DNA from: Amoebophrya sp. A120
Taxonomy: Eukaryota; Protista; Dinoflagellata
Reading direction: 5' to 3'
Assembly (NCBI GenBank): GCA_905178155.1
Contig: CAJINV010000022.1
Span: forward strand, 124,001-188,000
Length of the DNA stretch: 64,000 nt
Shown here: positions 13,772 to 64,000 of the stretch, piece after piece
Numbering within the stretch: the stretch's first letter is position 1
How the letters are laid out: each line of letters starts with the position of its first letter
The notes under the pieces: generated by a model
Databases searched by the model: none
Told to the model about the DNA's origin: nothing
What the model saw: the letters and a program-made list of their open reading frames with translations, nothing else
Translations under genes and position numbers: made by a program

Positions 13772-14216
13772 TTTGGAAAATTTTTTTTTCTCGGGGGGTC
13801 AGAAAAAGAAAAAGTAGACGGCTACAAGGGAGTTGTCCAACACCACCCCCGCGGTTTCTTTCTTGACAATGACTTCTAGAGAAGATCACGCACCTACCAT
13901 TTGGCTCAGGTTCTCGCATCGAAAAAGATAAAGAAAAAGCGTGTAGCAGTACGGTGGGGCAAATTATGTCCGTGCTGTTGCTGTTGGCAACTACGCACAG
14001 GTTCGACGCGCCGTTTGATGTGTTCTCCAGAATAGCGTTAGCGCTTAAGGACGTACTAGCATGGGTATTACCGATCATTCTGAAGATGATCTAGCATTCG
14101 CTCAAGAAGAACTATCTTTTAAAAGAGAGCTGAACACCACGAGCAGATCCCGAGCTGATTGATCCATTTGGCTTTCAATAGAAAGGATTGGATCCCACGT
14201 ATTTAACGGAAGACCC

Positions 14217-15604
14217 ACCGCCTCCGAGATGATCTGCTCCACGTCGGCTATAGTACGATCTGCGCAGATATCGAAAGAAAAAGTGTTGACGTTACGGTTT
14301 TAAGTTTTTTGGAAAAAAAAAATTTTGGGTGTATGCTGGAGGTATGTTTTTGGTTTGTAAGTCGACCCATTCCCGCTATTCGTTCTCGCGGGACTGCGAC
14401 GAAGCTCGCTTGGTTTGACCTAGCTAGTGCACAAAATATGACGGCGTAGGACTTCGGCGACCGGGGCCGCCCCCTGCCGTGCCTTCTCCTCGCCGCCGGC
14501 TCTTAGATCCGGGCCAGAACGCTCAAACCTCGAACCGTGGCTAAACCTCGGACGTGTGGACCTATGAGCTTGCATCTAGATGGCGTTTCCGCCAGTTCAG
14601 CTCTGTGCGGCTGTGCAAGTTTCCATCTCGGACCTTTTGGCGCCTTTTGTCAAATTTTCTCCATGACTGAAGAAAAGGTGGCACTTTCGAGGATGAGGGA
14701 AATGGGCAAACTTTGGGTACCAAAATGCCCAAAATTTGCAGGCACCCCAAAAACCGTCAACACCTCATCTAGACACTACGGTATGGTCGATCGGGTCTTC
14801 CAGAAGCCTGCTTTTTTGCATGAAATCGACCAAAAAACCGTCAACACCTCATCTAGCCAGCACGCTATGCTCGATTTGCCTGCTCAGAAGGTGCGCTCCC
14901 GTGCCCGCACCGGTTTGAGTGAAGGGAAATGGATCATAGCGTGCTGTCTAGATGAGGCGTTGACGGTTTTTGTGGGATCTGCATTTTTTGGCCTCGAAAT
15001 GGCGTCAAATCATTGATTTTTTCCTCGGATTTTTCCAATTCCCCAAAAAACCGTCAACATCATATCTGGACAGCATGCTAAGGTCCATTTTCCCTCAATA
15101 AAACAGGTCCATCTCCGGCGTCGATCGTTGCGACGCGTTGGTGGGCGGGTCTTGTCAGCAGTGCCGGGGCCCTGGCCCACCGGCTTACAGCCATCATGGC
15201 TCTTGAGCCCGGACAGGGATTGGGCAGCCATTTCAGGGCTTGAAGGGGCGCAATGTTGTGGCGGGGCCTCATAGTTTTCGCACCGTGTGCACTAGCTTCC
15301 TCTCCCAGAGTTTTACCACTTTAGAGCCCCGCAGGGGCAAAGAATGAGGCTGCGCGGCGGCGAGAAAAAAAAAAATTAAAATGATGGTGCTCAGTACCCA
15401 CAAAAATTTTTTTTTCCAAAAACCCGAAAACCGTAACGTCAACACTTTTTCTTATGATAGCAGAGGAGGTTGTTCATCTCCAAGTGCAACAAGTTGCACG
15501 AAAACCCTACCGCCTCCGAGATGATCTGCTCCACGTCGGCTATAGTACGATCTGCGCCACGGAGGTTGTTCATCTGCAAGTGCAACAAGTTGCACGAAAA
15601 CCTA
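14217..15604. repeat. 96-bp tandem repeat (about 2 units) interrupted by a TIR element
   Basis: ACCGCCTCCGAGATGATCTGCTCCACGTCGGCTATAGTACGATCTGCGC at 14217 and ~15509; GGAGGTTGTTCATCT..AAGTGCAACAAGTTGCACGAAAA at 15465 and 15561. Confidence 0.85.
14269..15459. mobile_element. 1.19-kb non-autonomous TIR element (family G), intergenic
   Basis: TSD GCAGA/GCAGA; ~65-bp imperfect TIR TATCGAAAGAAAAAGTGTTGACGTTACGGTTTT; four internal AAAACCGTCAACA..CAT-type repeats, one inverted. Confidence 0.9.
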
Positions 15605-23700: not shown

Positions 23701-26520
23701 CAGATGAATCATCCCACGACTTCATCATCTTCATCATCAACATCTGCACGTGGGCCAACAACATCTTTCCAATACGGCACCAGCACAACTCGTCCGCAGA
23801 ATCCCTTCATTCCCCAGCAGGACGGCGCACCAGGACGTCGGCCTCCGCAGCCTTCTCCTCCACCTCTGGGTGCGACGACGGGTGGACCACAGCTCCAACA
23901 GCGTCTATTTGACGCCCTGCTGCTTGCAACGGTGCTGATGCGTGCGAAATTGCGCGAAGCTGCGTTTTCAACAGCCGGCCCCGGCGAAGTTGCAGCTTCC
24001 CAGACCACCAGAATGGTGATTAATACGTTTCTGGATGTGGGCGGTGTGAGGAACGACAACGATCCACATTCGGCTCTTCAACAGCCAGAAAACTTTCTCG
24101 CGGCAGCGGACGCAGTGGTGGAGTCTTTTTTCGCAACCTATGGATTGCAAATATGTCTGGGTCTGGAAACTTGTGATGCTGAGGCATGGATGAGTTTGGT
24201 GCTTTCAAGTGCAGCCATGCGTGACAAGTTTAGTTGGCGCCGTCTGATGCGTAGCACGCATGACAAGTTCTTGCATCACAAAAGAGTCGCGCGCTTGGTG
24301 GCTATGCAATACAGATTTTTCAGGAATGCAGGACATGCAACACAAGTTCCACCTTTGTTCCAGAGCCAGACATATTTGCAGTTGATACAACCTACGTAAG
24401 ACTCATTTTCGACGCCGATTGGCGGCTGTTGGTGCAACAGTCTACTACTGCTCCCGAGCAAGAAGCGGGACAAGGCGAACTACCGAGCGCCACGCCTCCA
24501 GCTCCTGTTGCTGAAGCTGCTTCTTCTACCAGGAAGAGTTATCGGGACGTTTTGATGTCTGCTGTTGGTGCAGGTAAAGCAGAAGGCCGCGCCCCGACGA
24601 ACAAGGCCAATGCCAAGGCCGCGGCATCAAGTAGAAACGCTGCAGCACCAAAAAGTACTGCCAAGGCAAAAGGCAAAGCCAAGGCAAATCCGAAGCCCAA
24701 GCCCGCGGGCGGAGGGCGGCCAGCTGAGGAAGGATCGTTCGATGACCAGCAAGGACAATATCAAGAAGGGGCCGCGAATACGAATAGTACAACTGAGCCG
24801 AACTCCAACGTCTTCCCCGATGGGGTTTTCGTAGCTGCAGTGGCCGCGCAACAAGGCCTGCAGCGCGGGGTTGAACTTGGCAGCTCCTGGGCACAAGTAC
24901 AACTACCTATCTTCCATTTACTCTCCCTTGTCAACAAACTGCCGGAGCTTGTGCAAGCGTCGCCGTCCTCGTCCCAAGCAGCACAAAGCATGATTTCGAA
25001 CATGCTCGGCTTAGTATCCTGAGTAAAAACGTACCCACACCAGAGTTGTAATGCAGATTTGCAAAGACAGGAAGGCTTGTAATGCGCATCACCATGAGAG
25101 CCATTTCCAATCGTGTTTTGGAATTTGTGATGCTGTGAACAGGATGAGCAGATGAATCTGTGATGCGGCTGCACTTGCTAACCTGCACTACACTGCAGAG
25201 TGCAACTTGTCATGCGTGACTCACAAAACTCCTAGGTTTGTGTTGCAAAATCCCCATCCTGACTCTGGTGTGGGTACGTTTTTACTCAGGATACTTAGTA
25301 GCGCAGCTCGCAGGATACCGCGTTGAACAGATTCGATTTGGTAACAACAACCAACAAGAAGATGAAGACTCAAGTGCTGTCGAACAACTACAAGACGTGG
25401 GGTCCTCGTCGACGTCCTTGGACAGTGGCTTGTCCACTTTTCTGTCCGCAGCGGAGGTTATGAACTGCAAAAGTATCGTATTCGTATAAATGCATTACAA
25501 ATTTCCTCAGCATGAGAAATAAAATTTGTAATGCGGATTCGACTTAACAAAAAGATTTGTAATGCATGATTGCAATACGAATACGATACTTTTGCACAGG
25601 ATAGAGGTGCTCTCCGCTCGAGTCGACGTGCAGGCTCAGGCCCTGCTCGAGGCTCAGACAAGTCGAACTGGTGGTCACCAACGAAGTAGAAGTACAAGGA
25701 GAGCAAGAAGTCGCACACGCTCCAGCAAATCTTCATCCTCACGAGATCGCAGCACATCTTCATCACGAGATCGCAGCAGAGCTTCATCTAGTGGACGACC
25801 TGCGGATCCGAATGCTGTACCGCGGCATGGTCGTCGCCCCACTGTTGGTGGAGGTGGAGTCCCAGCACGCCCCTCGATTGGGCGTGGCGAACAGCGCCTG
25901 AAAGGAAGACGGTCCCGATCTCCTTCCCAGGAGGTCCTGGAGGCCACGACGGCGACGGCCCACGATTTTTATACCACGTCTCCGGTTGAGAGTGATCGTG
26001 AAGATGAAGCACACGACTCGTCCGCGTCCATCGCCGGTGCAGAGTCAGTGGATGGACCGTACGATTTTTACGATGTTGGTGATAAGCAGGGGCATCGCTC
26101 GCGATCACTAAGTCCGGCACCTGTTTCGGTAGGTGGTGCCTCGACCGCTGTCGGCAGCCAGGCGGTGTCATACGTCACCTCGACCGTAGGCAGTTGGCCC
26201 TACGTCGGAGGGAGCAGTAGTAATCCAGGAACAACGAGCGCCTCCTATCCTGAGTAAAAACGTACCCACGACACCAGAGTTGTAATGCAGATTTGCAAAG
26301 ACAGGAAGACTAGTAATGCGCATCCCCATGAGAGCCATTTCCAATCGTGTTTTGGAATTTGTGATGCTGTGAACAGGATGAGCAGATGAATCTGTGATGC
26401 GGCTGCACTTGCTAGCCTGCACTTGTCATGCGTGACTCACAAAGCTCCTAGGTTTGTGCTGCAAAATCCCCATCCTGACTCTGGTGTGGGTACGTTTTTA
26501 CTCCGGACACCTCCTTATGA
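20750..26520 (+). CDS. Large lineage-specific protein (C..GLR(F/Y)P family) with N-terminal TM; may be two genes split at ~22933-23300
   Basis: Introner removals chain 20750-22932 and 23305-26520 (ends ASL*). The link across 22933-23304 is unresolved, but both sides share a frame. Confidence 0.6.
22251..22400. mobile_element. Introner family A
   Basis: TSD CACGC/CACGC; TATCCTGTGCAAAAGTATCG; frame restored. Confidence 0.92.
22933..23319. other. Probable old intron or degenerate introner
   Basis: Starts TATCCCCTGC, tandem TTGTCATGCAAAATTC twice, ends CGGATA; no matching TSD. Confidence 0.4.
24139..24387. mobile_element. Introner family B
   Basis: TSD CAACC/CAACC; gives FATYVRLIF. Confidence 0.92.
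25015..25293. mobile_element. Introner family F (young)
   Basis: TSD CTTAG/CTTAG; perfect 32-bp TIR TATCCTGAGTAAAAACGTACCCACACCAGAGT. Confidence 0.95.
25459..25603. mobile_element. Introner family A (reverse orientation)
   Basis: TSD GAGGT/GAGGT; ends TTTTGCACAGGATA. Confidence 0.92.
26246..26509. mobile_element. Introner family F (near-identical to 25015; ACA end)
   Basis: TSD CCTCC/CCTCC; ends TTTTTACTCCGGACA; lies two codons before the stop. Confidence 0.92.
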
Positions 26521-26929
26521 ATGCGTCAACGATTTCGACTTCGACTCGGGAAGAGTTTTGCCTTTACACGGAACAGAGCGGCCACAGCTGCTGCATAATT
26601 GTAGTGCTGGATGCTGATGTAGAAGAACTACGAATAGTGCACGATGTTTGTACAAATTCAATACATAAACGTTGCACGAAGCTTCCTGCACAAGAAATAT
26701 ATCAGTCACGTCACATTTGCCATTTTCCTAGTTCAGGTGGACGCTTCAACTCTTTGTAAGTATGTACTATGGAGTTCTTGTGTCTCTTCTCTTGAGGTCC
26801 AGGAGGACAACTCGCGATTTGCAGTTTCATGCAAGGAAGATGAATATTTGTGCAACGACTCTATCTGAGCTGCTCCGTCCTGTTGTAAAAAAAACTCTTC
26901 GCGGGCACAACTTTTTGCGATCATACTCA

Positions 26930-27961
26930 ATGATGGGAAGTCCCGAACTTGGAAGGATCAGTTATCCAAAGAAAAAAACCCATCCACATCCAATTTGTCA
27001 TGCAAAAAACGTATAAAATCATGTGTTTGTCATGCAAAAAATGGATGTGGATGGGTTTTTTTCTGTGGATATCAGTTACTCTAATCCTCCAAGCGCGAAG
27101 GCCAGTCCCGAACTTATGGAAGCGTCAGGTTTGAAATCGTCAAAGTTGATATAATTTGTAATGCATAAAGTGCGACACAAAAAGCGACTCTATTGCAGAG
27201 GACCCACGGGAGGCAGATTATACATAGTCCTGGTAAGGGTCAAAAGTTGGATTGCTAACTAGCATGACAGAAGGCAGCTCTTTTGCCCTCAACCGCACGA
27301 CAGACTCGCTTCCAGGAACGGGAAAGTTTGTCATGCGCCGACTACAAACTGTAGGTCTAAACGGTATCCGTTTTATGCATGACAAACTATTTCAACTTTG
27401 ACGATTTCAAACCTGACACATCCATAGAACTCGGAAGGAACATCACAACGACCTCGGGAAGTAGACCTGAACCCTATGGAAGCGTCAGGATTGAAATCGT
27501 CAAAGTTGAAATAGTTTGTGATGCATAAAATGCAACCCACAAAGTGCCTGTCTTGCAGAGTAGGCAAGGGAGGCAGATTGTAAGCCTGTCGAGGGGTAGG
27601 ATCACTGCTGCTAAAGTAGCACGACAAAAGGCGTCTTCCTTACCTAAACAGCATGACAAACTGGATCTCGGCTCTACTCAAATTTGTCATGCGCCGCTTA
27701 GAAATTGGGCTTCCAACTGGTATCGATTTTATGCATTACAAGTTATTTCAACTTTGTCGATTTCAACTCTGACACATCCATAAAGCAGAGCAGATTCTGG
27801 ACATCTCCGAAGCAGAGTCAGAGGCGGAAGATGGTGATAAGCAGGGGCGCTTGCGATCCCTAAGTCCGGCAGCTGCCTCGACCGTTGCCGGGAGCATGGC
27901 GGTGTCCCACGTCACCGGCGCTTCCTCGTCTGCAGCCACCGCTACAGGCACCTTCTTATGA
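26930..27961 (+). CDS. Putative chimeric mini-gene (~90 aa) with three introners
   Basis: Spliced: MMGSPELGRISYSNPPSAKASPELGRNITTTSGSRPE-EQILDISEAESEAEDGDKQGRLRSLSP...GTFL*. Confidence 0.55.
26963..27071. mobile_element. Introner family C
   Basis: TSD TCAGT/TCAGT; empty site in the paralog at ~28798. Confidence 0.95.
27115..27426. mobile_element. Introner family D
   Basis: TSD GAACT/GAACT; empty site in the paralog at ~28836. Confidence 0.93.
27475..27782. mobile_element. Introner family D with mismatched TSD
   Basis: Intact TIRs; flanks AACCC/AAGCA; element+5 nt removal keeps frame. Confidence 0.85.
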
Positions 27962-28388
27962 ATGCGTCAACGACCTCGACTCGGGAAGAGTTTTGCCTTT
28001 ACACGGAACAGAGCGGCCACAGCTGTTGCCATTGTAGTGCTCGATGCTAATGTAGAAGAACTACGAATACACGATGTTTTTGTTTGTAGTTGTACAAATT
28101 CAATACACGACAAACGTTGCGCAAAGCTTCCTGCACAAGAAATAAATCAGCCACGTCACATTAGCCATTTTCCTAGTCCAGGTAGACGCCCCAACGTTTT
28201 GTATGTACTATGGAGTAGTTTTAGGTGTCTCTTCTCTTGAGGTCCAGGACGACAACTCGCGACTTGCAGTTTCAACATGCGAGGAATTATATTTGTGCAA
28301 CGACTCTAGTAACTCTATCTGAGCTGCTCCGACTCCGTCCTGTTGTAAAAAAAAAACTCTTCGCGGGCACTTTTTGCGATCATACTCA

Positions 28389-31300
28389 ATGACGGGAAGT
28401 CCCGATCTCGGAATATCCTGAGTAAAAACGTACCCACACCAGAGTCAGGATGAGGATTTTGCAACACAAACCTAGGAGTTTTGTGAGTCACGCATGACAA
28501 GTTGCACTACTACTGCACCCTAGATCTCCTGCGGCCGTAGCTGCTTGCGGCGACGGTGCAAAGGTTTTCGATGTGGCGCAGTCGGGTATGCATGACAAGT
28601 TGCACTATGCAGTGTAGTGCAGGTTAGCAAGTGCAGCCGCATCACAGATTCGTCTGCTCATCCTGTTCACAGCATCACAAATTCCAAAACACGATTGGAA
28701 TGGCTCTGATGGGGATGCGCATTACAAGTCTTCCTGTCTTTGCAAATCTGCATTACAACTCTGGCGTGGGTACGTTTTTACTCAGGATACGGAAGGATCA
28801 GTTACTCTAATCCTCAAAGCGCGGTGGGCAGTCCCGACCTCGGAAGGAACACAACGACCTCGGGAAGCAGACCTGATGAACCCATGCCTGCTCTTCGTCT
28901 GCATGCAGCAGCCTCGGGAAGCAGACCTGAACCCATGCTGCGACCTCGGGAAGCAGACCTGAACCCAGTGCCTATTCACGGGGCGCAGCAGCAGCAGCAG
29001 CAGCCTAATCTGCAGGCAGGGCAGACAGGTAATATCGTGCAGCAGCACCCGCCAGTTCTAGTAGCGCCGCCGGGAAGTAGTAGTGCTGGTTCCGGTTCAA
29101 TTCCAATTCTTGTGCCCATCCGAGACCCGGTGACGGGGCAAACGGTTTTGTCCCCTCCTTTGGGGTACGAACAAGGTACTCAAAGTCTGATTGTAGGGAT
29201 GCCGGTGAACCACGAGCAGCGGTTAGTCCTCCAACCGGCCCCGGGCACGGCAGGTGGTGTCGCGACCACGGGTCTCAATGTTGTAAACCAGCCGCAGCAG
29301 CAGCAGCAGCAGCAACACCTCCCCCCACACCAGGGCATAAGTAGCCCAATGTCTCCCGAGGAACGTGCCGCTCATCAGGAGTATGTTCAAAACCTGGTCG
29401 AGCGCGACAACGCCCGCCGGGCGGAAATCCAGCGTAATCGTGCACTAGAACGACAGGTAGGAGGACCGCCAGATGAACAAGCTGGGCGGGAAGTCGAAGT
29501 AGAGCCTGCAGGAGCAAATAGACGTGGTCTTGTACTTGCGCTCGCTGGCCGACGTGGCCGACGCGGTCGTCTTCAACCTGCGGAAGTCCAAGAGCGTCCG
29601 GATCCAGTGTCCCGGACGCCCTCGCACAGCCCTGAACGCTGGTTAGGACCAGGCGAGGGTCTTCGCGCCGAGGATTTTCATCCGCATCGGGGCAGAGGCC
29701 GCGTCGGGGCAGAGGCAACACAGCAGGGTGTGCAACAGGAGCTCCAGCAGGGGATGAGCATGGGCGTCATGATGCAGGTGGGTGGCCAAGAAGAAGAAAG
29801 AGGACCTGGGCCTCATCTAGGTCAACAGGCTCCCCCTGCGGTCGTCCCTCCGCCGCCTTACCCCGGGAACCATAATATAATGCACTACCCTTACCCCGGA
29901 CAACTACCCTTACCAATACCACCACCACCTGCTCCAGCAGCGCATGATCAGGAAGGCCAAGGTGCGGCTGCTGGTTTCGTTGGTTATAATCCTGCTGTCC
30001 CAGCAGCAGGGACCTGGGGAGGACCACCAGGGCCAGGAACGAGACAAGAGCAACCACAATGGCCTATAGTTTCCCCGCAAGGTTCCCCGCAAACTATGAC
30101 CACGGCAGGACCCGGAGTTCAAGTTCCTCTTCAACCAGCGGCTCCTGCACCAGGAATTATGCAGCACGGCATCAATTGGCAACAGGTTGCTTCACGACCA
30201 GATCCGTCGCTGATGGGTCCTACCTACGACTACCCGGGAGGTGTCGTGTCTTTTCCATCGGCGTTTGCCGGGTCATTCGCAGGGCCTTCGACGATGAGTT
30301 CTTCACCTGCTTCTATGGGGGCTGCCGAGTTTGGTGGTGCTGGTGGACACTTTGGTGGCGGTTTCGGTCCTGGTCTTGGCCAACCACAACAGCAGTTAAA
30401 TTATATTGCAGGAGAGAAGATGCCACCACAACTACAACCAGGAGTTGTACCTCCACATACTCCACCACAAGTATTTTTCCCTCCTTCTCCACAAATGATG
30501 AGCACCAGCGACTACTTCTTGATGCAGCAGTTGCAACAACGTGGTCAAGGCGGATGTAATATTACCACCACTTCTTCTGCCCCCGGGGGCGGATCTAGTT
30601 CCAGTTCGTCTCATCTCTCCCGACCCGTAGGCGGCGGCCGGGGATCTCCGGATGGTGGAGCGGCGCAAGCAACTTCGGATGGTGTTGGAGCGGCGCACGA
30701 GGGTGGTCCAGGTGATGTCCTGTGGCGGGGCGCCAAAGGTGATGCAAGGAAAAAAGGAAAAGGTGGAAAAGCTGCATCATCATCGAGGACGAGAGAAAAG
30801 CTGAACAAAGAAACAAAATCCGTCGTTGATCCGGACACAGCTGCGCCACAGCAAGAACAGGGTCATGCTCGTGTTGAACCAGGAACAGTATCGCGGCGAC
30901 CTGCGCCTAGATTTGCGATAGAAGCCGTGCAAAGTGCATTGCGGAAAGCTCAGCGCCGACGTCGTAGCCAGGGACTACATGGGTCGTGGCAGCCGGTCCG
31001 CGCGTTGCAATTCTTGCAAAATTGGATCGCTCACCGACCGGAGGCACGATTACTTCGAGAACGAGAGGAGATCGAAAGAGAACTTCAGGCCGGAAATGTA
31101 GTGCCTATCTTGGAACGGATGACCCCCGAGCAATTGGATGCGCAACGGCTCCTCATTTCTTTGCTTGACTCCAGGGCGTGGACGACGGATTTCATTGGCG
31201 CTGTCCTTGAGGATCCTCACTTTGTTCCTCGTCGGGAGCTAACCCCGGAGGAGGATGCAGCCAGTATTTCGCACTTTGAAAACAGTGTCCGCGACGCGTT

Positions 31301-33637
31301 CCAAAGGCGTGGTGACCGCGTGCTACAGACCCCAGGCCTGCGTGAGAGCGATCACGAAGAAGTGGGTCTGCTGCCATGGCTGGAAAGGTTCGCCTTGCGC
31401 GGGACCTCGGGCACAGTTTTCTTCCGGGTGCGCAATTTCTACATCGGCCGCGACGATGGGATCCTCAGAGCCGTGGTGATTACCGGCTTGGAGCCGAGTG
31501 ACGCCTGGCTGCGGGAGGGATTGGACGAGGGCCGGGGGTTCGTGTGGCACCCGGAATACGAGTTGGATCACACGACCGTTTTCCACGCGGAGGACGTGAC
31601 TACAACGGGATACGGAACTTCTACTTCCCGTCGGGAGATACGGTGGAAAATAGCCGACGGGGAGTTCCCGTCCGACACTGCCGAAGCTTGGCAAGAGAAG
31701 CTGCGAGAACAAGCTGAATCGCAACAACGTCCCCGTCCGGGAATCTTGCGCGACCAGGAGCAGCGCGGCGGCGGCCGAGGATCTTCGGATCGTGGACCTG
31801 CGGCTTCAGAAAGTTTTGGACCGGCCAGGGCTTTGGAGGATGAGCCGGGGCGGCCGCGTGCTGGTGCTTCGTTGCCTTCTTCCTCCTCTTCGCGGCCAGG
31901 AAAGAGGGGCGCAGCGCCTTCTCAGATAGGAGAAACACCACCAACAGTAGATCAGCGAGGTCCACCTCTGGCTTATAATTTGGTGCCCATGATCGAGCGC
32001 CGCTTCGTGACGCAACTTCAGCAAAGCTTGGAACCGCTACGACCTGCTCCGGCAGAGGGTAGCATCGCCCCACGACACCGGGAATACGCACCGGACATAG
32101 AGGCGCTCCAGCTCTTTAGAGACTGGATCACGCTTCGGCCGAAGGTGAAGAACAGGCGTCGTCGTGAATCGCGGCGACAGAAGCCCGGCGCCGGCCATCC
32201 GGGAGAAGAACCGCAGCCGCTCCTGGAGCCGATGACCCCCCAGCAGAAGGCCCTACAGAGAGTTTTCATTCGCCTACTCGAAAGCGCCAGGTGGACTGTG
32301 CCTACGACCCGCCCGGCTACCCTCGGAGATGGCGCAGTGAACAAGGGCGAGACGTTGGAAGAGCAAGCCGAAGTCTGGACACAATCCGAGCTGTTGCAAG
32401 ATCGTATTGAGGCTGCGTTCGATAGTTACAACCGTGACACATTTCGGAACAGGTCGGAAAATCATGACGTGCCAGGTCTGCGAGGCCTCGAGACGCTTGC
32501 CCTGGGTGGGGGATTTAGTGGCGGGACTGTAATTTTCGGGGTCCGGAATTTCTATTATGACGAGACAACCGGCACGCGCAGAGCTGTGGTGATGACCGGT
32601 TTGAAGCTATCCTGTGTAAAAACGTCCCCAACTTCCCAGGGTTCTCAAGTAGATGGGGATTTTGCTATAGAAGTCAACAGGTTTTGTGGGTTGTGCATGA
32701 CAAGTTTAGGTTCGCATTGTAATCTTGTTTTGTAGCACTAGCAGGTACTGCAGCCGCATGAGAAACACAGCGCCTTAATATGATCGTGGTGGTAGCATGA
32801 CAAATTCCCAAGCAGCATGAGGAAAAAATGCTCCTCATGTGATTGGGATTGCGCATGTTGAGAAAGAGAAACAACATTTTACTTATGCAGATTTGCATGA
32901 CAACTCGGGGAGGACCATGCGGATGTTTTTCCTCAGGACAGGAACCGCGCAGCCGAGACTTCGCGTGGGGGCCAGAGTACGAGGTGGATCACACGACCGT
33001 GTTCGAAGCTATCGATGAAAAATATCGCGCGGCGACAGCCGGAAGCGAAATTCCACCACGACCACAGCTGTGGTGGAAAAGTAAGCCTGGTGAGTATCAG
33101 TCAGCAGCTGCACGCGAGCTTTACCGTGCGCGGCGGGAGGAAATGAACGCGAGGAGACAACGCGGCGGCGCACAGGATGTAGATCATTCACCGGAACCAG
33201 CAGTCTGGGTCTCACTCCCAGACCATGGGGGTGCTGCGCCTGCGCCTGGTCCACCCCAACGACCGGTGGGGCGTCGACGTCGCGGCGATCTGGATGAGGA
33301 GCTGCAAACAGAGGCCGCACTCCTGGAGTCTTTGGCAGCAGTGCCACGGCAAAACGTGCAAAACCGGTGGCAAGATGTTTGTGACAGCGATAATAATGTT
33401 AGTGACAGCGAAAAGCGAGGTCGTGACAGTGGCGAAGCCGGCGGCGCCGCTGCGTCGTCACATCGAGCCACGAGCCGTCGCGCGTCTCCACTGCGCCGTC
33501 CTCTTCTTGGTACATCGGCGAGCGACGCCGGAGGGGGACCAACTCTCCCCGGGCCGTCGTCGTCGTCGATGCCGCGGCACTCTGCCCGTGGACGCCGTGA
33601 CCCCACTGGGCCCCCAGGAGGGCAGCCACCCTCGTAG
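28389..33637 (+). CDS. Large Q/P/G-rich protein with a duplicated ~230-aa domain, 3 exons
   Basis: MTGSPDLG|RISYSN... joined to the 1331-aa ORF and the last exon; repeat ALQ..(N/D)WI..RP / MTP.Q / GTV.F.VRNFY / RAVV.TGLEP / W.PEYE.DHTTVF occurs twice. Confidence 0.8.
28414..28789. mobile_element. Introner family F (reverse orientation) with internal insertion
   Basis: TSD CGGAA/CGGAA; reverse complement of the 25015 copy plus an 80-bp insert. Confidence 0.93.
32608..32940. mobile_element. Introner family F-like (ACA end)
   Basis: Flanks GAAGC/GGAAC; removal gives VVMTGLEP, matching VVITGLEP in the paralogous repeat. Confidence 0.88.
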
Positions 33638-39800: not shown

Positions 39801-42800
39801 ACTCCCGCAAAAAATTTGTTGACCTGTACCAATTCTTCGTGCGTGAAATGGCGACGGTCACGAACATATGAACTGCAAATATGTCTGGGTCTGGAAGAGT
39901 CGTGGCTTGTCATGCACATTTTGCATGACTCATAAAGTCTGTGATGCTGGTGCTAGCATCACAGTTTTTTTGAGAGCTTCTCCATGCTTATTACGCATGG
40001 CAAATGCCCTCTCCGCGTGCCAAGACCTGACTCCTCTTACTGCTCACGCAACACAGATATTTTTACAATCCGCAGACAGCATTACAAGTTCCACTCTTCC
40101 AGACCCAGACACTTTTGCACTTGATAGAACAACGGTGTAGCCATCGACGCAGAGCATTTTCTTCGGCGCAAGAAGAAGGAACTTGAAAAGAAAAAACGAG
40201 CATCTGTGTCGGCAACAAGGAGCATTGTAGAAGGATCGCGTTCGCCTGCAGCCCTGATTAAGACATTTTTCGCAGCTTGGTTGGGCGCAGCTGGAGCAGC
40301 TGCAGCTGCGCCTAGGAACAGTAAACAAGCGACCGCACAATCTTGTTCTTCATCTTCACCAGTAGAGAGTGAAACCACAGCTGCTGGTGTGTTTCATCAA
40401 GAAGAGCAGAGTAGAAGTAGCGCCTCTTCATCCACCGCGGGGCCATGGCCGCAGATCTCACCTTCCAGCGACGACGCGACTCCAGTTGTGCGCTCTCTCG
40501 ACGCACCACCAGCCGCATCAACTACATCCTCTCTGGAGCTGAAGTGCGTGATCGCCGGGCTGCGGTATCCGTATGAACAGGGGCTGCAGGTATATGATAA
40601 ACGGTGGAGTTCGAGCAGATCAGCTAACCCAATCGAGATGTACGTCGCGAGACTTGACTGGGTCTTCGAACTATGGATTGTAAAAATGTCTGGGTCTGGA
40701 AGGTTGGAACTTGTAATGCTGTCTCTGGATTCTGAAAAAATGTGTATTGCATGACCAGCAAGAGGAGTCCAGATTGTGCTACGCTGGGAGGGCGTTTGTC
40801 ATGCGGGAGAGGCATCAGGAAGCCCTCAAAAAATCTGTGATGCTAGCTCTTGCATTACAGGCCTCATGGGTCATGCAAAATATGCATGACAAACCTGGCA
40901 ATCTTCCAGACCCAGACATTTTTACGATCCATACGAACACTGTCTCAATTTTCAGCTTCGGTACACCAAGCTGAACGCCGTGCAGCCTGGAGTCGCGACG
41001 ACGTCGCGTGATTTTTCCTGGAGGTCTGTTTCTGCACAAGAAGAGCACGTATCAAATGCAAATATGTCTGGGTCTGGAAATTTGTGATGCTAAAATGTGG
41101 ATAATGAAAACAATTCCAAATGCGACACAGCATGACAAATTTTCAGAACACTTTCTCCTAGGCAATCCGCATGAGAAACTGCGTCTTTGCATGTACAAAA
41201 GAGGCTGCGACTTCTGTTGGCTATGCAATACAGATTTCCCAGGTATGGAGAGCTAGCATTACAAGTTGCAACCTTTACCTTCCTGACCCAGACATATTTG
41301 CAATGCATCAAGTAGTCTCAATTTTCAGCTCCGGTACACCAAGCTGAACGCCGTGCAGCCTGGGGTCTCGACGACGTCGAGTGATTTATTTTCCTGGTCT
41401 AGTACTTCTGCACAAGAAGAGCACGACCACGACCGTATGGGACGAGATGATGAGCAAATCTTTCCCATCGCGTCGAAGTTCTGGACTTTCGCGGAAGAGA
41501 AAACGGAACTTCTGCAGGCACGGAGCCTTTTCGAAGTGGTCCGGGAGTTTTGGCTCCAGTTTGCGAGGCAAGCGGAGATACCCGGGGGCGCCACGTTGGA
41601 ATATGGTTGGAAAGTACTGAAGGCAGACCTCGACCGCAAGTTGAAAAGTCACATGAGAACCTTCCGATTGCGCGGCCGGAACAAGACAAATGAGGAAACG
41701 AAAAAATGGCAGACGCCCCGAATACCCTTCCACGACCAAAGTAGAAGTAACGGGCTAAAAACTTTGGAAGCAGTGAAACAATCGATGTTCGGGTCAAGCC
41801 AGATGGCACGACACCAGCTGCCGATGACTGAGTCTGGAGATCATGGTGGTCCCTCTGATGTTCATGTCCGAGATGTGCGCAACCTGGTTTCGCAATTCTT
41901 TTCGGAAGATGACCGAAATGTTGGGCGAAGACCCAAAGTCGCCCTGGATCTGGTTTTCGAAAAACCGCAGGAGGTTTTTAAATTTTGGCACGTGGACAGG
42001 CGGGCGAAAGGTAATCCCCGCGACGGGGAGGGAAGCAGCACGGAAGAGTCGTCGTGCGACGACGGCCGCGGCAACAACCCACCCGGCGGGCCTGCAGATG
42101 TTGACGCCACCAAAGCCGGTACAAGAGCTTCGCGGGAAAACAAGCGCCTGAGGGCAACGTTGCGCGGCCGCAGCGGGCAAGGCGGGGCAGGAAAAAGGCC
42201 ACGGAAAAACAACGACAGGTTACAACATCGTGCAGCTGCCCAACAGATAGTACAATCACAATCTGGTGAAGATGATATGATAATCCGTGACCGCCTGCTG
42301 AGGGGTTTGGTTCGCACCATGCGCATGCTTATCAAATGCAAAAGTGTCTGGGTCTGGAAGAATGCAAGTTTGTCATGCTTGTCTGGTATGACTCGAGAAT
42401 CTGTGTTGCATAGGCACGAAAAGGGCCTCTTGTCTGTCATGCAGAAACGCAGTTTGCCATGCGAAAAACGAAACACAAGAGCAGCTCAAAACTTTGTCAT
42501 GCTTGGTTGCGTATTGCAGTGCGCCCACCAGTCACATCTCAGCATCACAAGTTTCCAGACCCAGACACTTTTGCATTTGATAATGCTGGAAAAGGAGCAA
42601 GCCGAGCAAAGACATCGCGAGTTTGTATGGAATTCTCAAATGTTGCATTCTCAACTGTTACATGAATTTGTATTGCAAGAATGGCAAAAGTCAAAGAAGT
42701 GAGGTTGCACTTGTAGCATTACAAATCCCGCACAGATTTGGATGCTGTTTAGCGTTTCCGAAATTCGTCATGCTAAGTAGCTTCATTGTGTGGATGTTGA

Positions 42801-45800
42801 TGCTCATTTTGCATGACAAATCATGTAAACAGTTGAGAATGTAACGTTTGAGAGCGCCATAGTTTGCAGCTTCCCCTTATGATTATCCCGAGGCAGGTGA
42901 AATCGCTCCTTATGCAGAATCGGTGGTCTTGCATCCCGACCCCGAGCATGGTGCGGATACGCTCGAACCTCTGCTCGAGAAAAGAATCGGTGGTCGCCTG
43001 CGTCCCGACCCCGAGCGTGGTGCGGATGCGCTCGACCCTATGCATGGTGCGGTCGACCCTCTGGATGCGATCTTCCGCAGCTTTTGGTGGTTTGGACTAG
43101 AACTAATTTTCTCGACCGAGTGGGACTACGAGTCTGAAGACGAGGACAAAAATTTTACAGCACGACCGATGAGTGCTAGTACCGCGTCTCCTGGAAAAGG
43201 AGCGGAAGATGATCATGCCGACCACGAAACCGGCAACGACGGCGAGACGCTGCGGGCCAAAATGCTGCAGCGATCCGTAATGCCCGAGAGTGCTCGAATA
43301 GTACACATGCCGATTTATGGTCCTGATGGAGATGAAGAAGTAGATCGGAAGCTGATGAATGAAGACGACCTGCGGGAGCTGCTGCGGCAGGCGGAAGCTG
43401 CTGCGGAAGCTGCTGGGGAGACAGCAGTTCGCGAAGTGTGGAATGATATCCGGACTTTGGGGGCCCTCGCCTCCGAACTTCGTTGGCTAGCGGACACCAC
43501 TTTTGAACAAGATCATGACGTTCTTCCGCATGATGAGGTTCTTACAACTAGCGGGACAACAACTGCAGGAGCCGGTGGAGGTGCAGAAGGTACTACTAGA
43601 ACTGCAGCACCAACCGCAGATCTTCAGGGTGAGGGTTCATCCATCCCCGCGGCCGTGCAGTTTGTCCTGAAAACCTTGAATTTCTATCTAAGCCTCGCGG
43701 ATGATCTGGGCGAGCTGGTGAAACTGGAAGTGGTTGAGAAAAACCACGACGACTCGGGGCAGGAGGAAGTGAAGTTGAAGATCTGGAGTTCATCTGGAGA
43801 AGGAGTGGCACAGACATCACAAAATGAAGATTCCGACGATCTTCATGCTGCGCAGGTGGGGCAGGATCTTCAAGAGGCGTCAACGGCATCAAGCGTGGTG
43901 TCGACATTGCACGAGCGAAGTGTGCCACCTGCTGCTGGCGCTTTCAGGAGTGGTCCAACTTCTTGGTCGGCGCAGGCGCAGGGGCTTGTTGCTTCCCAGC
44001 AGCACGGGGGCGCAGCGCCTTCCACGGAAAATATGCCAGCAGAAGCAGCAGCAGGAGGAGGCCCTCAGATTTATTTTCAAGAGAGACAATTCCAGGGGGC
44101 CGCATTGGGCGGTCTGGCAGGCGCCGGAGCACTTGCTCGCGGGCACGGGGCGCGGCCCGGCCCTGTTACAAGTCAGTTCGAGGTTTACGTCGACGAGGAT
44201 GAGGAGGAGGACTCCGTCGCTTATCATGGAGAAAAGTTGTTTGTTTTTCACATCATGCCTTCACAACTTTTCGTATCAAATCTTTGTCATGCGAGGAAGC
44301 AACGATGCATGTGGATCTAGACAGGGAGTAGAAGAGCAGAGTAATTGCCCTAATCGTTGTCTTCCTAGCTTTTTTCTGGAGGATAAAGAGGATCATGAAA
44401 GCCAAAGCGCGAACCAATACTAAATTTGCATGACTCTTTCTCGCAGATTTCCACTTGACACGACACACCCAAATACGTGCAAGTTGATGGCTGCGTTTTT
44501 ACTTACAACTACGTTTTTTCTCGATGATAACGCCGAACCACAACTCCCCGCCATGCCATCGCTAGCAGGTTCGAGCAGCGCCCCCGGCGGTCCGCCAGCT
44601 CCACCTAGCGGCGGCCGGGAAGTAGATGTTGACCCGACGCAGCCCCCACCGCCCGGAGCGACAGGAAAAACACGAACTGCACTACCAGGCGGGCCCGCTA
44701 GTAGTACCCCTTTTAGCTTCAGCACGAAGGATCTACCCGAGAATCAGTTTCCCGTAGAGCAGTCACTGCGCAGAAGTGTCGAACAAGGGCAAGGCCAGCA
44801 TCAGCAGTTCCGTCCAGGTGCAGCCTGGTCTGATTTTGGTTTTGAGCCAGGGACTGCCGGCGACCCACAACGTGCTGCGGACAAAAGACGACCTTTTTTT
44901 TCGAAGGATTATCTCAAGAATGCCCAGTCTCGCCCCGCCACCTCCGAACAGGAGGAAGCATTGACGCAGCATGTGCATGAAGGCGGAGAGGTACAGGAAG
45001 ATGAAAAAATGAAAGAGACACCACCTGCTCCACCAGGCGGTTTCGACCGCGAAACGTCGGAAACCGAAACCATGCTACCTGTCAGTCGTGCAGGCACCTC
45101 GCCGTTCAAGCTGGACGATTTCTCCCCGTCATTCGCAGTTTTGCCGGCGAGTGAAGAACAAGGCTTGGTAGAACAAGCTGTAGTGCCTCAACATCAAAGC
45201 CGCGGTGGGCCGAGAGACTACGGAGCAGTAGAGGACGAGCAGATACCAGCAGTGTCGAAACCAAGTCCAACAACAGATGATGGTGTGACCTCCGGCGCAC
45301 CAGGAAGAACAGAGGCAGCAAGCGTCAGCGGAGGTGGTACTCGTCAGCACGTAACAAGGACCACAGCGGCTCTGGATCATCCACATCTCCACCAAGCCTT
45401 GGGCTCAGTCGCCGAGGAGGGTCAAGACGACCTTCAACTTCACAAGGAGTTCCCAGGGGACGAGGAATCGGGTCGCAGTACAAGCTCGGACGAGGGTTAT
45501 GGCGGGCCGCCTCCAAGAGCGCAAACGATGGTATTTATAGATGCAATGTTGCACGATCTTGATCGCCACAAGTCCATGGGAGCACAAGCCGGATCTTCGG
45601 AAGCGGGCACCGGAAGTCGTTCTGCTGACAAAGAGAACATTCGGAACCGCGCAGCGGTGCAACAAGCGGGACAAGTAGTAGACGAAGCTCCTGCAGCATC
45701 TACTTCGCCTCGCGATGAAGATCTTCGTGTTAGCGATACGAGGCGAGAAGCGACCTCGATGGAGCAGATAGAACAGGGACTGGAGCAGATGCTTATTCAA

Positions 45801-48800: not shown

Positions 48801-51800
48801 CTTGACTTGCTTGAGAGGCACAGCTGGCGCGCCACGAGTGAGATGCGTCATCCCAACCGCCCAGCGAGTTGCGTCTTTAAGTTGCCGCACCACACGCAGA
48901 TGCGCGCTGCGGGATCGCGCCAGCTGTGGCACTGCGCAAGGCCTGCGACCACCTCTAACACGACAATCAGTCTTGTTTTTGCGCAACCTAACACGCGCAA
49001 CTCGATCCACTATCGCGCGGAGAAGGGGCAGCTGGTGCCGGCAAATACGCCCGAAAATGAAAAGTTTTTTTGCCCAAACAACGAAAAAACTTCTCTGTTT
49101 AGGTTGACCCCTTTTGCATTTTGCACGTTCATAGCAGCACATGATGACAACTACAGAGCGGAAACAAGACCTGCTCCTGTAACGGGAGCACTACAGCCCC
49201 CTGATTATAGAGACGCTCACGCAAGCAGCAGCAGCGGTGCAGTGTGTGAAAAAGATCCATCCCGCGTTTCGACCACTGCGCCGCACCAAGAAGCTGCTGT
49301 CCAACAACGGAGCAGAGCCAGCGTTGTAGCTGCAGAGCAACCTCATTTGGTGACGCAGGTTGTAGCGAGCCGACCACAAACTCTTGACCCGCCACCGCCT
49401 CCGGCGGCACCGGCACCGCACCTCCAGGGAGAGCCCGGGGCTGTTGAACGTGTTGTTGCGCCCGCCCGGACAGTCGAACAGCGACAGCAGGACGCACGCG
49501 ACAGGCTGGAAACATTGGCGCAGGCGACGATTCCTGACTTTTTCCGTCTGTTAGAAGCCGCCGCCGCCGACGGCCTGATAACCCACGAGCAAAAGCAGTC
49601 ACGCGTGAAAGATTTAGAAGGAAGGCTAAAGCACGTTCGCACATGGCGGTCTCACCACGAAGACCCGGAGAAGCTAATGGTCCAAATTGCCAGGTTGAGG
49701 AGGCCGCCATCCTACATCCACGACATCCTGGACACCGAAGAAGATATTGGGCGAGGCGCGCTACTGCAAGTAAAATATTGGACGGGCTACATTGCATGGA
49801 AGCGCGGTCGCCCCCGCGGGCCCGACGTAGAGGACAGTGCGATCATCAGTCTGGGGCATGACATAGTGCTGCAGAACCAAATTTTGAACGTTCTGCGAGA
49901 CGAAGTGCCAGCAGTTGTGCCTCTGACGCACTCGGAGCGAGAATTTCGTCTTTTCTGGGACGAGCGACAGCATCATCTCGACCAGGGTCGATTTACCCCA
50001 GCGACAACTGACGACCAGCTCCGTCGGCAGCTAAGGCAGCTAATAGGTGGCTCTGAACTAGATGTTCAGAACATCCTCGCGGAGCACCTCAGGCGGCAAA
50101 GGGGCCTACAAGACAAACTGGTTCTCATTCTACTAGAGCGGCCAACCGCGCTACGTGTACTGGATGAAAGAGCAACAGAACAACCGATGTACATGAACGC
50201 CCTGCACGCCGTTCTGGAGCGTGACCTCGCAGCTCAAGCCGCAGCCGCGACACAGGAATCTACACAGGAGGAATCACAGGCCGCAGAAGAACAACCTTTG
50301 GTAACTACGCAGGTTGTGGCGGACCGACCGCAACAAACACCTGAGGACCCGCCACCCCCGTTGGGTGCACCAGCAGCGCCGCCCCAGGAACAACAATCGG
50401 GGGCAAGTGTTGTTTCCTCGGCGCCAGGCGGGCCGATGACGCCACAGTTCGGTGCAGCTGGGACATCAAGTGCAAGACAAGTAGGAGAACTCAATGCAGA
50501 ACCTCCTGAAGAGGAGCAACCTCCGCCTCCTTTTGAGGCCCTAGAAAACCGAGCGGCTCCTGGATTAGGGGAAGATGAGGTTGGGGCGTCGAGGTCCACC
50601 TCCACCACCCCCTACGACTTAGAGAGAGAGGAACGACGACAGCAGGAGGCACGCTCGAGGCTGCAGGAATTGATGCAGACGACCATACCTGGCTGTATCC
50701 GTCTGGCAGCAGCCGCCGCCACCGACGGCTTGATAGGTGACGAGCAAAAGCAGAACAGTGCGAAATATTTCGAAGACAGTCTCGCGATCGTTCGCAGATT
50801 TCATGAAGAGTTCGCAGACCACCTCCACCCGGAAGCGGACCCCCGAAGCAAGACCATCCGGGAGTTACTGGACCGGGAAGAACAGACGGTGCGAGACGGG
50901 GTGGTAGAGTTTATAAGAGTATGGACAGATCACATAGTGGAGTGGCGACGCCGCGTACGCGAGGCAAAAATGCACGCCTCTGTTGTACAGCCCGCTGCAG
51001 GAGGTTCCTCTTCTGAGACAGGAGCAAGAACTGCAATTGTGGAACTTCTACCTGTGGACGAGGACAGCACGAGTCTAGGGCACGACGTCATGCTGCAGAA
51101 CCAACTTTTGGAGATTCTGCGATACCAAGTGCCACCATCTCGGTATCGCAACATGCGGTCAGAGCAAGAATTCCGTCGGCTCTGGGACGAGCGAGAGCAG
51201 CTTTGCGACCAGGGTCGAGCCACCCGCGCGATAGATGAGACCAATCTGCGTAGGCAGCTGCGAGCTCCAGTAGATGAACACAACACTGCAGAACACCTCA
51301 GGCGGCAAAGGGACCTACAAGACCAAATTTCTTTCCTTCTGCTGCACCGGCCACATGCGCTGGTCGTACTGGCGACAAGAGGAACAGAAATACCGACGTA
51401 CATGAACACCGTGGACGCCATTCTGGACCGACGTTGGCTCGCGGCCCAACGCGCAGGCACGACACAGGGATCCCAGGCCGCTGCTGCATCAGCGGCCGCC
51501 CCGTCGGCTGGCGGGATGCTGCTCTGCAGGAGAATCGTCCTCTTCTGCATCTTCAGTGCGAGCTCTGATGAAGACGAGGACGGCAAAGCAAAGCTGAAGA
51601 CGCAGTTGTCTGGCGCTCGTGCAATTGACATTGAAGTAGAAAAAAAAATAAAGATGGTAGAAAGCCTGCCCGTAGGTGAGGAAACAGCAACGAACTTGAT
51701 ACAGCAGATTAATCTCCGGGGGAGACAAATGCGGCATATTGATCTGGACCTCAGAAAGGATAAATATCAAAGACCCGGAGAAACTGTTGACACGTTTTTC

Positions 51801-63500: not shown

Positions 63501-64000
63501 TGCCTGTGAGACGACCTGCTCCAGCTTCACAGCTTTCGCGAAGGCTTGCCCATGGTCATGCCTATCCTGCACGAGAAAAATAAAATGCCATCTCCGAGGG
63601 GCAAAAATCTGAGTGCTTTTGTTGCTCATGTTGCAGAAGTACAGGTTTTTTTATGATCGACAGTTGGAGGAATCACAAATCCCATAATTCTACTTTCCCG
63701 ACCCAGACGTATGAGAAAAAGCAGCACTTGTATGCACATCCGAGAAAAGATTTCGAGACACAGAAGCGAATCGAAACAACAAGGATAGCATGCGTGAATG
63801 AATGAATGAATGACCCAGACGTATTTGCAATGCATAGGCGGCACGGAGCTACATAACGGAGCAGCACTTCGACGAAAAGTTTTTGCACAGATTGCCACAC
63901 TATCAAATGTAAAAATGTCTGGGTCTGGAAGAATGCGCGATTTGTCATGCAGCTTTTCCATGGCCCATGAGCCCAGGAATGCGGGACCTAGCATGACAGA
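60547..64000 (+). CDS. Lineage-specific protein (C..GLRYP family), 3'-truncated by the window
   Basis: 873-aa ORF 60962-63583, plus a probable first exon from ATG 60547 and exon 63842-63900. Confidence 0.7.
60919..60971. mobile_element. Possible minimal 53-bp introner
   Basis: TATATTGCA...TGCAACA; flanks CGAGT/CGACG; 58-nt removal fixes the frame offset between the two ORFs. Confidence 0.4.
63421..63836. mobile_element. Introner family B with nested insertion
   Basis: TSD GTCGG/GGCGG; TATCCACTGCAAATCTGTCTGGGTC...GACCCAGACGTATTTGCAATGCATA. Confidence 0.88.
63713..63811 (+). mobile_element. Short retroposon-like insertion
   Basis: 13-bp direct repeat GACCCAGACGTAT on both sides; (TGAA)4 at the 3' end. 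Confidence 0.55.
63901..64000. mobile_element. Introner family B, truncated by window end
   Basis: TATCAAATGTAAAAATGTCTGGGTCTGGAA. Confidence 0.85.

Follow-up and report, generated by a model that had tools for sequence, protein, structure and literature searches.

A spliced introner at the junction of an in-frame tandem duplication in an Amoebophrya gene, and its likely role in making it

We describe an in-frame tandem duplication in one gene of Amoebophrya sp. A120, the junction of which is held by a spliced introner that is also its likely maker; we put a rough probability of 0.7 on this reading as a whole. Because the supposed intergenic spacers are spliced as introns and an NCBI protein of Amoebophrya A120 (P0001) reads both copies, the case is an in-frame exon duplication within a single gene, with a predicted product of about 2,200 amino acids. 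Throughout, "the window" refers to the whole stretch of 64,000 nucleotides that was analysed, and positions are counted from its first letter.

Results

The host gene and its duplicated unit

The long host gene (23704..33637, + strand) is predicted to encode 2221 amino acids from its first ATG once 11 introns are taken out, its frame being open when each intron is cut 1 nt before and 4 nt after the terminal inverted repeat (TIR) of the element (the −1/+4 rule). P0001 gives a stop-free reading from 25790 to 29123 through both copies in one frame; it is a gene model, and the same RNA data may underlie it. RNA-type contigs span 25781 to about 29300, a second protein (P0002) matches the 3′ part of the gene, and beyond this cover the extent of the gene is predicted from the open frame. 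The product is low in complexity and matched no Pfam family in any of four pieces. A HMMER search for relatives of P0001 over 1.84 billion representatives returned P0001 alone, and a scan of JGI metagenomes confirmed none of 594 pattern hits.

Six of the 12 listed sequencing runs were compared (X1, X3, X5, X8, X9, and X10). X3, X5, and X8, none of which is on record as RNA, are taken as RNA by guess, the intron-skipping joint described below being missing in the DNA run; this RNA-type support comprises three runs from two samples of one study. X1 is identical to the window letter for letter and possibly its source, and is not independent. X10, raw RNA under the same species label, contributed a single matching read and is uninformative, and X9, an estuary metagenome, contributed a 195-nt piece equal to 28022-28216 and nothing across the junction.

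An earlier note on this DNA had claimed a tandem duplicate, and this is borne out. After removal of the young elements, each together with one 5-bp repeat, 26029..27474 (copy 1, + strand; an exon end, an old intron, short exons, and three young introners) aligns to 27802..28883 (copy 2, + strand). The first exon part carries 24/158 substitutions, the middle 24/389, and the last exon part 9/111; the duplicated old introns differ by 6.2%, and divergence since the copies split is ~3% per copy. Ahead of copy 2 lies a spacer of 16-19 nt (27783..27801, + strand), mostly exonic and without detectable homology to copy 1: in the comparison with copy 1 and its upstream exon, 431 of 2000 shuffles aligned equally well. 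The spacer was not found elsewhere in the window, where its best other match was 13/16.

Each copy contains an old decayed introner that now serves as an intron. In copy 1 this is 26516..26925 (flanks CTCCT/CTCAA, 3/5), which P0001 skips; in copy 2 it is 27957..28384 (flanks CTTCT/CTCAA, 2/5), within an intron of 27956-28388 that has the ends TT..CA and is cut 1 nt before and 4 nt after the TIR. The degenerate TIR of both outscores 1000 of 1000 shuffles, and the overall fold of the copy 2 intron is not above expectation (z = −0.08). Position 27955 is joined to 28389 without slack in X3, X5, and X8 (3/3 runs of this type), a joint absent in the DNA run (0/1). For copy 1, a 620-nt RNA-type contig starting at 25781 has exactly the length predicted after splicing with the old intron removed. 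No further member of this old family was matched at 85%, a setting at which copy 1's own contig also failed to match.

Introner differences between the two copies

Four young introners distinguish the copies. Three occur in copy 1 only, namely a family A element with repeat CCTCC (26246..26509), a 109-bp element with repeat TCAGT (26963..27071), and a family D element with repeat GAACT (27115..27426), each with a TIR, a 5/5 direct repeat, and an empty site in copy 2. The fourth, an inverted family A element with a 98-nt internal insert and repeat CGGAA (28414..28789; TIR, 5/5 direct repeat), occurs in copy 2 only; its site is empty in copy 1, and it is spliced, the RNA loose end behind 28413 resuming at 28795 in 3/3 RNA-type runs. 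The alignment thus agrees with the claim that the first three are missing from copy 2 and the last from copy 1, and the proposed minimum of four gains or precise losses after the duplication stands as four differences since the copies split. Removal of 26246, 26963, and 27115 from the mRNA is judged by the length of the 620-nt contig together with P0001. The least clean empty site is that of 26246, where the left flank aligns poorly and the 5-mer has one mismatch; this element was inserted in the old intron's left flank, so that either an exon of 1 nt (26514) is predicted to remain or the intron is a compound one.

Gains are likelier than precise losses, given the intact 5/5 repeats, the high copy number of the families, and a divergence of 2.5-3.5% among the three family A copies vs 6.2% between the duplicated introns. 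The four filled/empty pairs would then be ordinary insertions into exons, later than the duplication. The claim of very rapid intron turnover concerns a local rate, four gains in about 600 exon bases vs 0.74 elements per kb in the window as a whole. All five young elements, including the junction element at 27475, have a TIR that begins TAT, and they are repeated in the genome, with relatives in the window and a summed contig depth of 10^4 to 10^5 vs about 45 for unique DNA.

The element at the junction

The junction is occupied by a family D introner (27475..27782) with flanks AACCC/AAGCA (3/5), which is excised in frame together with 5 flanking bases. Its TIR hairpin is strong (z = −8.05), P0001 reads across it, and in X3 and X5 the loose RNA sequence ahead of 27786 is that of 27443-27472, from which X8 departs at one letter. 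Homology to copy 1 stops 0 nt from its left TIR, an exact abutment that upholds the earlier description of a family D element with non-matching flanks at the switch point. Homology to copy 2 becomes visible 19 nt past the right TIR. This right breakpoint, with 16-19 unaligned nt, is not exact as aligned and counts against a transposition reading. In favour of that reading, the sequence after the element differs from copy 2's continuation after the same site. Neither outer end of the duplication (26029, 28883) has an element, the junction element being the sole copy, a pattern expected of alternative transposition, in which one or both outer breakpoints are free of a cognate element. As for its age, at least three sites in its 308 bp differ from 96-99% of the family depth, and five differences from an X9 contig lie at 27600-27606; this is compatible with a divergence of ~3% in each copy after they separated.

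A second element with unmatched flanks (41050..41309, 0/5) sits at another tandem-duplication junction, between 40942-41049 and 41315-41425. In the sequence the frame is open across it and 5 nt remain unaligned on the right; none of five candidate proteins across it was confirmed. Among 40 elements surveyed in the window, with 2 kb examined on each side, 2 of 4 with flanks matching at ≤3/5 lie at such a junction, as against 0 of 36 with ≥4/5; 27475 was chosen for its junction look, and without it the pattern is 1/3 vs 0/36. A 5/5 direct repeat is present in 31/40.

Because 27475 abuts the end of copy 1 and a second unmatched-flank element lies at a duplication junction, we consider the junction to be probably the product of aberrant transposition. 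Each end of the element would have been joined to a target site of its own, whether in one step by hybrid or sister-chromatid transposition or through an adjacent deletion following a larger duplication; consequently, one flank would be the end of copy 1 and the other not, and the outer ends would be element-free. The splicing machinery, measuring from the TIR ends and ignoring the direct repeat, would then treat the junction as a clean intron and keep the duplicated exons in frame. Tandem duplication by transposition has a precedent in PMC3744419. In PMC7789003, putative transposases are reported in A25 only and none in A120, and PMC12130899 traces A120 introners in part to TIR DNA transposons.

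The best surviving alternative, which we regard as unlikely, is that slippage or break repair made the duplication without an element and a family D copy was inserted later, its 5-bp repeat then decaying by two changes. A 3/5 match such as that at 27475 is reached by random 5-mers in 10.8% of draws and, on sequence grounds, can be plain decay; 32608-32940 exemplifies this, with 3/5 flanks within a repeat and not at a junction. Insertion density is high locally, and other tandem repeats of the window (14209-15602, 42916-43043) have no element at the junction. Later insertion nevertheless requires a hit no more than a few bases from the left breakpoint as well as two changes, when 5/5 is the rule in the window, and the 0/5 flanks of 41050 are unreadable as decay. 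The chance that an element lies no more than 20 nt from a particular point is 1.5% at window density; it rises to 5-23% at local density and to that extent counts against transposition.

Slightly less probable still is unequal homologous recombination involving a pair of family D copies, one at either end of the unit, possibly on two haplotypes, with the filled/empty pairs as older allelic differences. Family D is very abundant, and a hybrid element with unmatched flanks is what such an exchange would leave. On one chromosome, however, it is expected to leave three element copies, at both ends and the junction (PMC3744419), which were not found, and the lack of an element at either outer end speaks against a simple homologous recombination of two elements. 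No hybrid switch is visible inside 27475 against five other family D copies, a number at which the comparison is uninformative.

The proposed mini-gene and the third copy

The earlier note had read 26930-27961 as a chimeric mini-gene, and as the main product a stand-alone gene of this kind between two others is refuted: the frame exists on paper if the old introns are kept, and one X8 contig that retains the old intron's end unspliced suggests that intron-retaining RNA may exist, but both stops (26518-26520, 27959-27961) lie within spliced introns, P0001 reads through, and the 620-nt contig begins upstream of the supposed start. The reading went wrong because an old intron was mistaken for intergenic DNA. 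Separate upstream and downstream genes are not borne out, P0001 having no stop over its whole span, and in place of transcripts of the mini-gene all three RNA-type runs show the 27955-28389 joint; no start and stop of its own were found in mature RNA. Of the suggested introner-mediated exon shuffling, the element at the switch point stands, but exons of the same gene are joined, not those of two genes.

The stretch 27799..28428 (+ strand) is letter-for-letter identical to a third copy outside the window, which follows other upstream sequence. This third copy of the second unit is present in both DNA and RNA contigs, and we counted it against our preferred explanation. In a 713-nt X1 contig, 227 nt match and 486 do not, and the same 30 loose letters precede the third copy in X1, X3, and X5. 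These upstream letters have no match within the window, and against copy 1's upstream exon 1102 of 2000 shuffles are as good. Neither they nor the spacer align to that exon in a way that would order donor and recipient. Contig depth is 85-87 over this stretch vs 42-50 on the flanks and copy 1. No protein for the third copy was found among proteins of 101-2000 aa; lying behind foreign transcribed sequence, it may be a real chimeric gene.

Haplotype mis-assembly, which the earlier note had raised, is very improbable: none of the listed DNA pieces extends over the duplicated stretch in full and the third copy amounts to an assembly graph branch at 27799, as expected of two haplotypes set in tandem through a repeat, but spliced RNA-type contigs bridge the junction in 3/3 runs, and contig depth over copy 1 equals that of the flanks (42-48 vs 42-50) rather than half.

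The splice register

Where the flanks do not match, the cut becomes visible: it falls 1 nt ahead of the TIR and 4 nt beyond it; GT-AG is absent, and the direct repeat is not needed. The −1/+4 rule gives P0001 exactly, the other five registers fail, and the rule also predicts the length of the 620-nt contig. A single intron determines the register uniquely, and the others fit (27475 permits −1/+4 or −2/+3, and 32608 permits 4/6 registers). Direct RNA-type evidence of removal exists for 27475, 27957, and 28414, and there are no fixed end dinucleotides among the 11 introns of the host gene. We infer that the machinery takes its distances from the ends of the TIR (N-TAT on the 5′ side, ATA-NNNN on the 3′ side) and ignores the direct repeat.

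Discussion

The elements described here resemble the introner elements of Amoebophrya A120 (Farhat et al. 2021, PMC7789003): the inverted repeats start with TAT, the direct repeats are 5 bp long, the ends are not GT-AG, and the elements are high-copy and spliced out of mRNA. The junction element and the two old introns lack a full border direct repeat (3/5; 3/5 and 2/5) and are introner-derived variants rather than canonical members. According to that study, more than 60% of Amoebophrya introns lack GT-AG, U1 is apparently missing, and perfect 5-bp repeats mask the cut site; splice sites are described there as lying at variable distances from the hairpin (1-5 nt), with an unknown border, whereas here the cut is fixed for one intron, two introns are spliced without need of the repeat, and elements sit at duplication junctions.

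Comparable junctions are described in PMC3744419 for maize Ac/Ds reversed-ends transposition and Drosophila P hybrid element insertion, where an element end likewise lies at the duplication junction and elements are fewer than recombination predicts. The units here are about 0.1 and 1.1 kb vs 8 kb to 5 Mb in those cases. Unlike them, the outer ends are element-free, the element is non-autonomous without a known transposase, and the element at the junction doubles as an intron, giving an in-frame exon duplication.

In the nonconventional introns of euglenids (reviewed in PMC11282704), too, the ends are non-canonical and a TIR stem stands at a fixed distance from them, with frequent TSD-like repeats and a likely MITE origin. 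Their offsets are +4 to +6 and −8 to −6, with purine/pyrimidine ends, whereas here they are +2 and −5 and the end bases are free; in a further difference, an old intron here is cut although its predicted fold has no terminal stem. Introners of other eukaryotes (Gozashti et al. 2022, PMC9860276) share the DNA-transposon-like intron gain, the enrichment in genes, and the removal of one TSD that restores mRNA length, but those families bring or co-opt near-canonical splice sites, while the A120 elements here have no fixed end dinucleotides. We found no report of a fixed register or of introner-made duplications in literature searched by title and abstract start, a coverage outside which most subscription journals fall.

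In practical terms, old introners resemble intergenic DNA at this locus and yield false stops and false mini-genes. Introners with unmatched flanks act as natural mutants that expose the cut site, and they point to a constant distance from the TIR ends, to which the repeat would contribute nothing. Should elements of this kind also mark the junctions of duplications, introners would reshape proteins besides adding introns. It is possible, though we hold it with somewhat less than even confidence, that a ruler on the TIR ends (1 nt before TAT, 4 nt after ATA), blind to the target repeat, cuts the non-GT-AG introners of A120 in general, that aberrant junctions thereby become clean introns, that tens of thousands of introners form an engine of exon duplication and exon fusion, and that the third copy is perhaps a real chimeric gene. 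If this is true, the introner engine would help drive the rapid protein evolution of this parasite.

A tandem duplication within one gene

The spacers read as intergenic within the duplicated unit (copy 1, 26029-27474; copy 2, 27802-28883) start with TATGA and finish with TCATA, and the degenerate TIR of both outscores 1000 of 1000 shuffles. Each of three runs taken to be of RNA type (X3, X5 and X8, two samples of one study; contigs aligned to 27768-28428) yielded a joint that connects 27955 to 28389 with zero slack and is absent from the DNA run X1. The spacers are not intergenic DNA but decayed introners, or old introns, at 26516-26925 (copy 1) and 27957-28384 (copy 2). The element at 28414 is spliced out in the same runs, as is the family D introner between the copies (27475-27782), for which the loose end ahead of 27786 corresponds to 27443-27472 (one letter differs in X8). 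Moreover, the predicted spliced length of 25781-27828 (620 nt) equals that of the X3 contig spanning those ends, and P0001, a partial Amoebophrya protein of 364 aa, runs from 25790 to 29123. The chimeric mini-gene that the earlier note had proposed at 26930-27961 is therefore abandoned: both of its stops are intronic, the spacer is skipped in all three RNA-type runs, and P0001 crosses both copies. One X8 contig retains the end of the old intron and may represent pre-mRNA, DNA or retention. With cuts placed 1 nt before and 4 nt after the TIR (-1/+4), the reading frame stays open over 2221 codons (23704-33637); outside about 25781-29300 we infer that it belongs to this single gene. Both proteins matching the locus carry the NCBI name Amoebophrya sp. 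A120, and a metagenome scan, HMMER and Pfam yielded no homologs outside this strain.

Filled and empty sites in the two copies

With young elements and one repeat each taken out first, 26029-27474 aligns with 27802-28883; differences fall at 24 of 158 sites in the first exon part, where gaps are many, 24 of 389 (6.2%) in the middle part, and 9 of 111 in the last exon part. The alignment bears out that elements 26246, 26963 and 27115 are confined to copy 1 and 28414 to copy 2. All four have a perfect repeat, and the empty site in the other copy holds a single repeat copy, least cleanly at 26246. Of the claim that at least four gains or precise losses followed the duplication, the four differences stand; gains are likelier than precise losses, given the very high abundance of these families and the differences of 2.5-3.5% among the family A elements 25015, 26246 and 28414, which are less diverged than the duplicated introns. 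All four elements lie in exons, though 59% of the unit consists of old introns (probability by chance 0.03). Overall, the earlier note was confirmed in part as observation and supported in part as interpretation.

Several other features of the unit were observed. The duplicated exon (26029-26244 versus 27802-27955) is about 15% diverged against about 6% for the duplicated intron, and thus the faster; its differences mostly change amino acids, in an alignment that is gapped, low-complexity and uncertain. Between the old introns, 9 of 13 indels have lengths divisible by three (binomial p = 0.009) despite the region being non-coding, possibly reflecting mutation bias. A young introner in an old intron's flank (26245-26929) predicts a 1-nt exon at 26514, or else forces ordered or compound splicing. 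Inside the 28414 element is a 98-nt insert bordered by a short duplication, a pattern that aborted gap repair can leave. The three family A copies lie within 3.8 kb (25015-28789) at 96.5-97.5% identity, and their clustering suggests local hopping.

Elements of 100-400 bp that have inverted TAT..ATA ends and are flanked by 5-bp direct repeats are numerous throughout the window and match the A120 introners described in the accessible part of PMC7789003. Flanks of 40 two-ended elements match at 5/5 positions in 31, 4/5 in five, 3/5 in two, 2/5 in one and 0/5 in one, in a census that favours intact TIRs and does not count the two old introns. The longest TIR element (1191 bp, 14269-15459, repeat 5/5) sits in the first copy of a tandemly repeated unit roughly 100 bp long (14209-15602), giving a further filled/empty pair. 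Region 49329-54890 contains multiple repeat units, 70-86% identical, with introners 51968 and 53143 in one unit and missing from paralogous units. Element 56809-57054 (flanks 2/5), with no duplication within 2 kb, is a candidate for adjacent deletion and another candidate site for reading the splice register; one more element begins at 63901-64000, truncated by the window edge.

Origin of the junction

Homology in copy 1 extends right up to the left TIR of the 27475 element (0 nt between them), and in copy 2 it begins at most 19 nt past the right TIR, so a family D element with non-matching flanks (AACCC/AAGCA, 3/5) does lie at the switch point, as the earlier note had it. Its left flank is identical to the empty site in copy 2, and the sequence after the element differs from that after the empty site. 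A second, in-frame tandem duplication of about 110 bp (40942-41049 versus 41315-41425; 4 mismatches in 105 aligned bases) has the same layout, an unmatched-flank element (41050-41309, 0/5) between tandem copies, and taking out that element plus 5 gives a predicted frame of 1450 codons. The pattern occurs at 2 of 4 poor-flank against 0 of 36 good-flank elements, or 1 of 3 poor-flank elements leaving aside 27475, the ascertained case. The 5-mers after the two junction elements are alike (AAGTA at 41050, AAGCA at 27475), possibly by chance.

Such a junction would be the signature of alternative transposition, as in maize Ac/Ds and P elements in the available part of PMC3744419; here, unlike there, the junction element doubles as a working intron. 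Introners and this class of rearrangement are both known, and we did not find the combination described. That the element made the junction is probable (roughly 70%), either by what would be alternative transposition or by adjacent deletion following a larger duplication. This reading is weakened because the spacer after the right TIR is unaligned, and no transposase is known, which also counts against it. It is further weakened by two points that favour a later chance insertion of 27475 at the junction, which we consider unlikely: local insertion density puts coincidence at 5-23%, and a family A-like older element (32608-32940) has flanks of 3/5 away from any junction. Two repeated domains occur there (31531, 32952); this older element lies in the second, and the empty site in the first identifies its flanks as a decayed repeat. 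Duplication by recombination between elements is quite unlikely, as neither outer end of the unit carries an element.

Haplotypes stacked by mis-assembly, the refutation the earlier note had foreseen, are argued against by two observations: three RNA-type runs contain the junction in spliced form, and copy 1 has full depth (42-48 versus 42-50 on the flanks). A third copy is present: a 713-nt DNA contig of X1 matches 27799-28025 and continues upstream into 486 unrelated letters; the same upstream letters occur in RNA-type contigs of X3 and X5 and were not found within the window. It is identical to copy 2 over 27799-28428 (X1, X3, X5). Contig depth, which is not copy number, is 85-87 across 27996-28428, with a contig mean of 56.8 against 56.7 expected with one part doubled; an 8.8-kb DNA contig beginning at 28763 has single depth. 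The third copy's junction letters contain a 12-nt tandem repeat, such as templated break repair can leave.

Splice register

Perfect repeats conceal the cut site of an introner; unmatched flanks leave it readable. In the old intron of copy 2 (flanks 2/5), the cuts fall 1 nt ahead of the TIR and 4 nt beyond it, giving ends TT..CA; the 27475 element fits -1/+4 or the neighbouring register, and the 32608 element agrees with -1/+4 yet permits four of six registers. Applied to all seven introns, -1/+4 reproduces P0001 exactly and the other five registers leave 1-2 residues wrong, a uniqueness that rests on the copy 2 old intron and on a protein that may derive from the same RNA. In the accessible part of PMC7789003, the position of A120 introner splice sites is described as variable, lying 1-5 nt away from the inverted repeat. 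The available portions of the literature, mostly other than subscription journals and including PMC12130899, PMC11282704 and PMC9860276, describe neither a fixed A120 register nor introner-made exon duplications.

No end dinucleotide is common to the gene's 11 introns, and base counts at intron ends are partly preset by the search pattern. A strong hairpin is predicted for the young element 27475 (z = -8.05); the old intron has no hairpin excess (z = -0.08), yet is cut. Splicing may follow a ruler anchored at the TAT and ATA ends. The motif N-TAT-G/C looks like a donor whose first base is free, and an A lying at -5 or -7 might serve as branch point at a fixed distance. The locus also offers a readable register for a splicing system so far unexplained.
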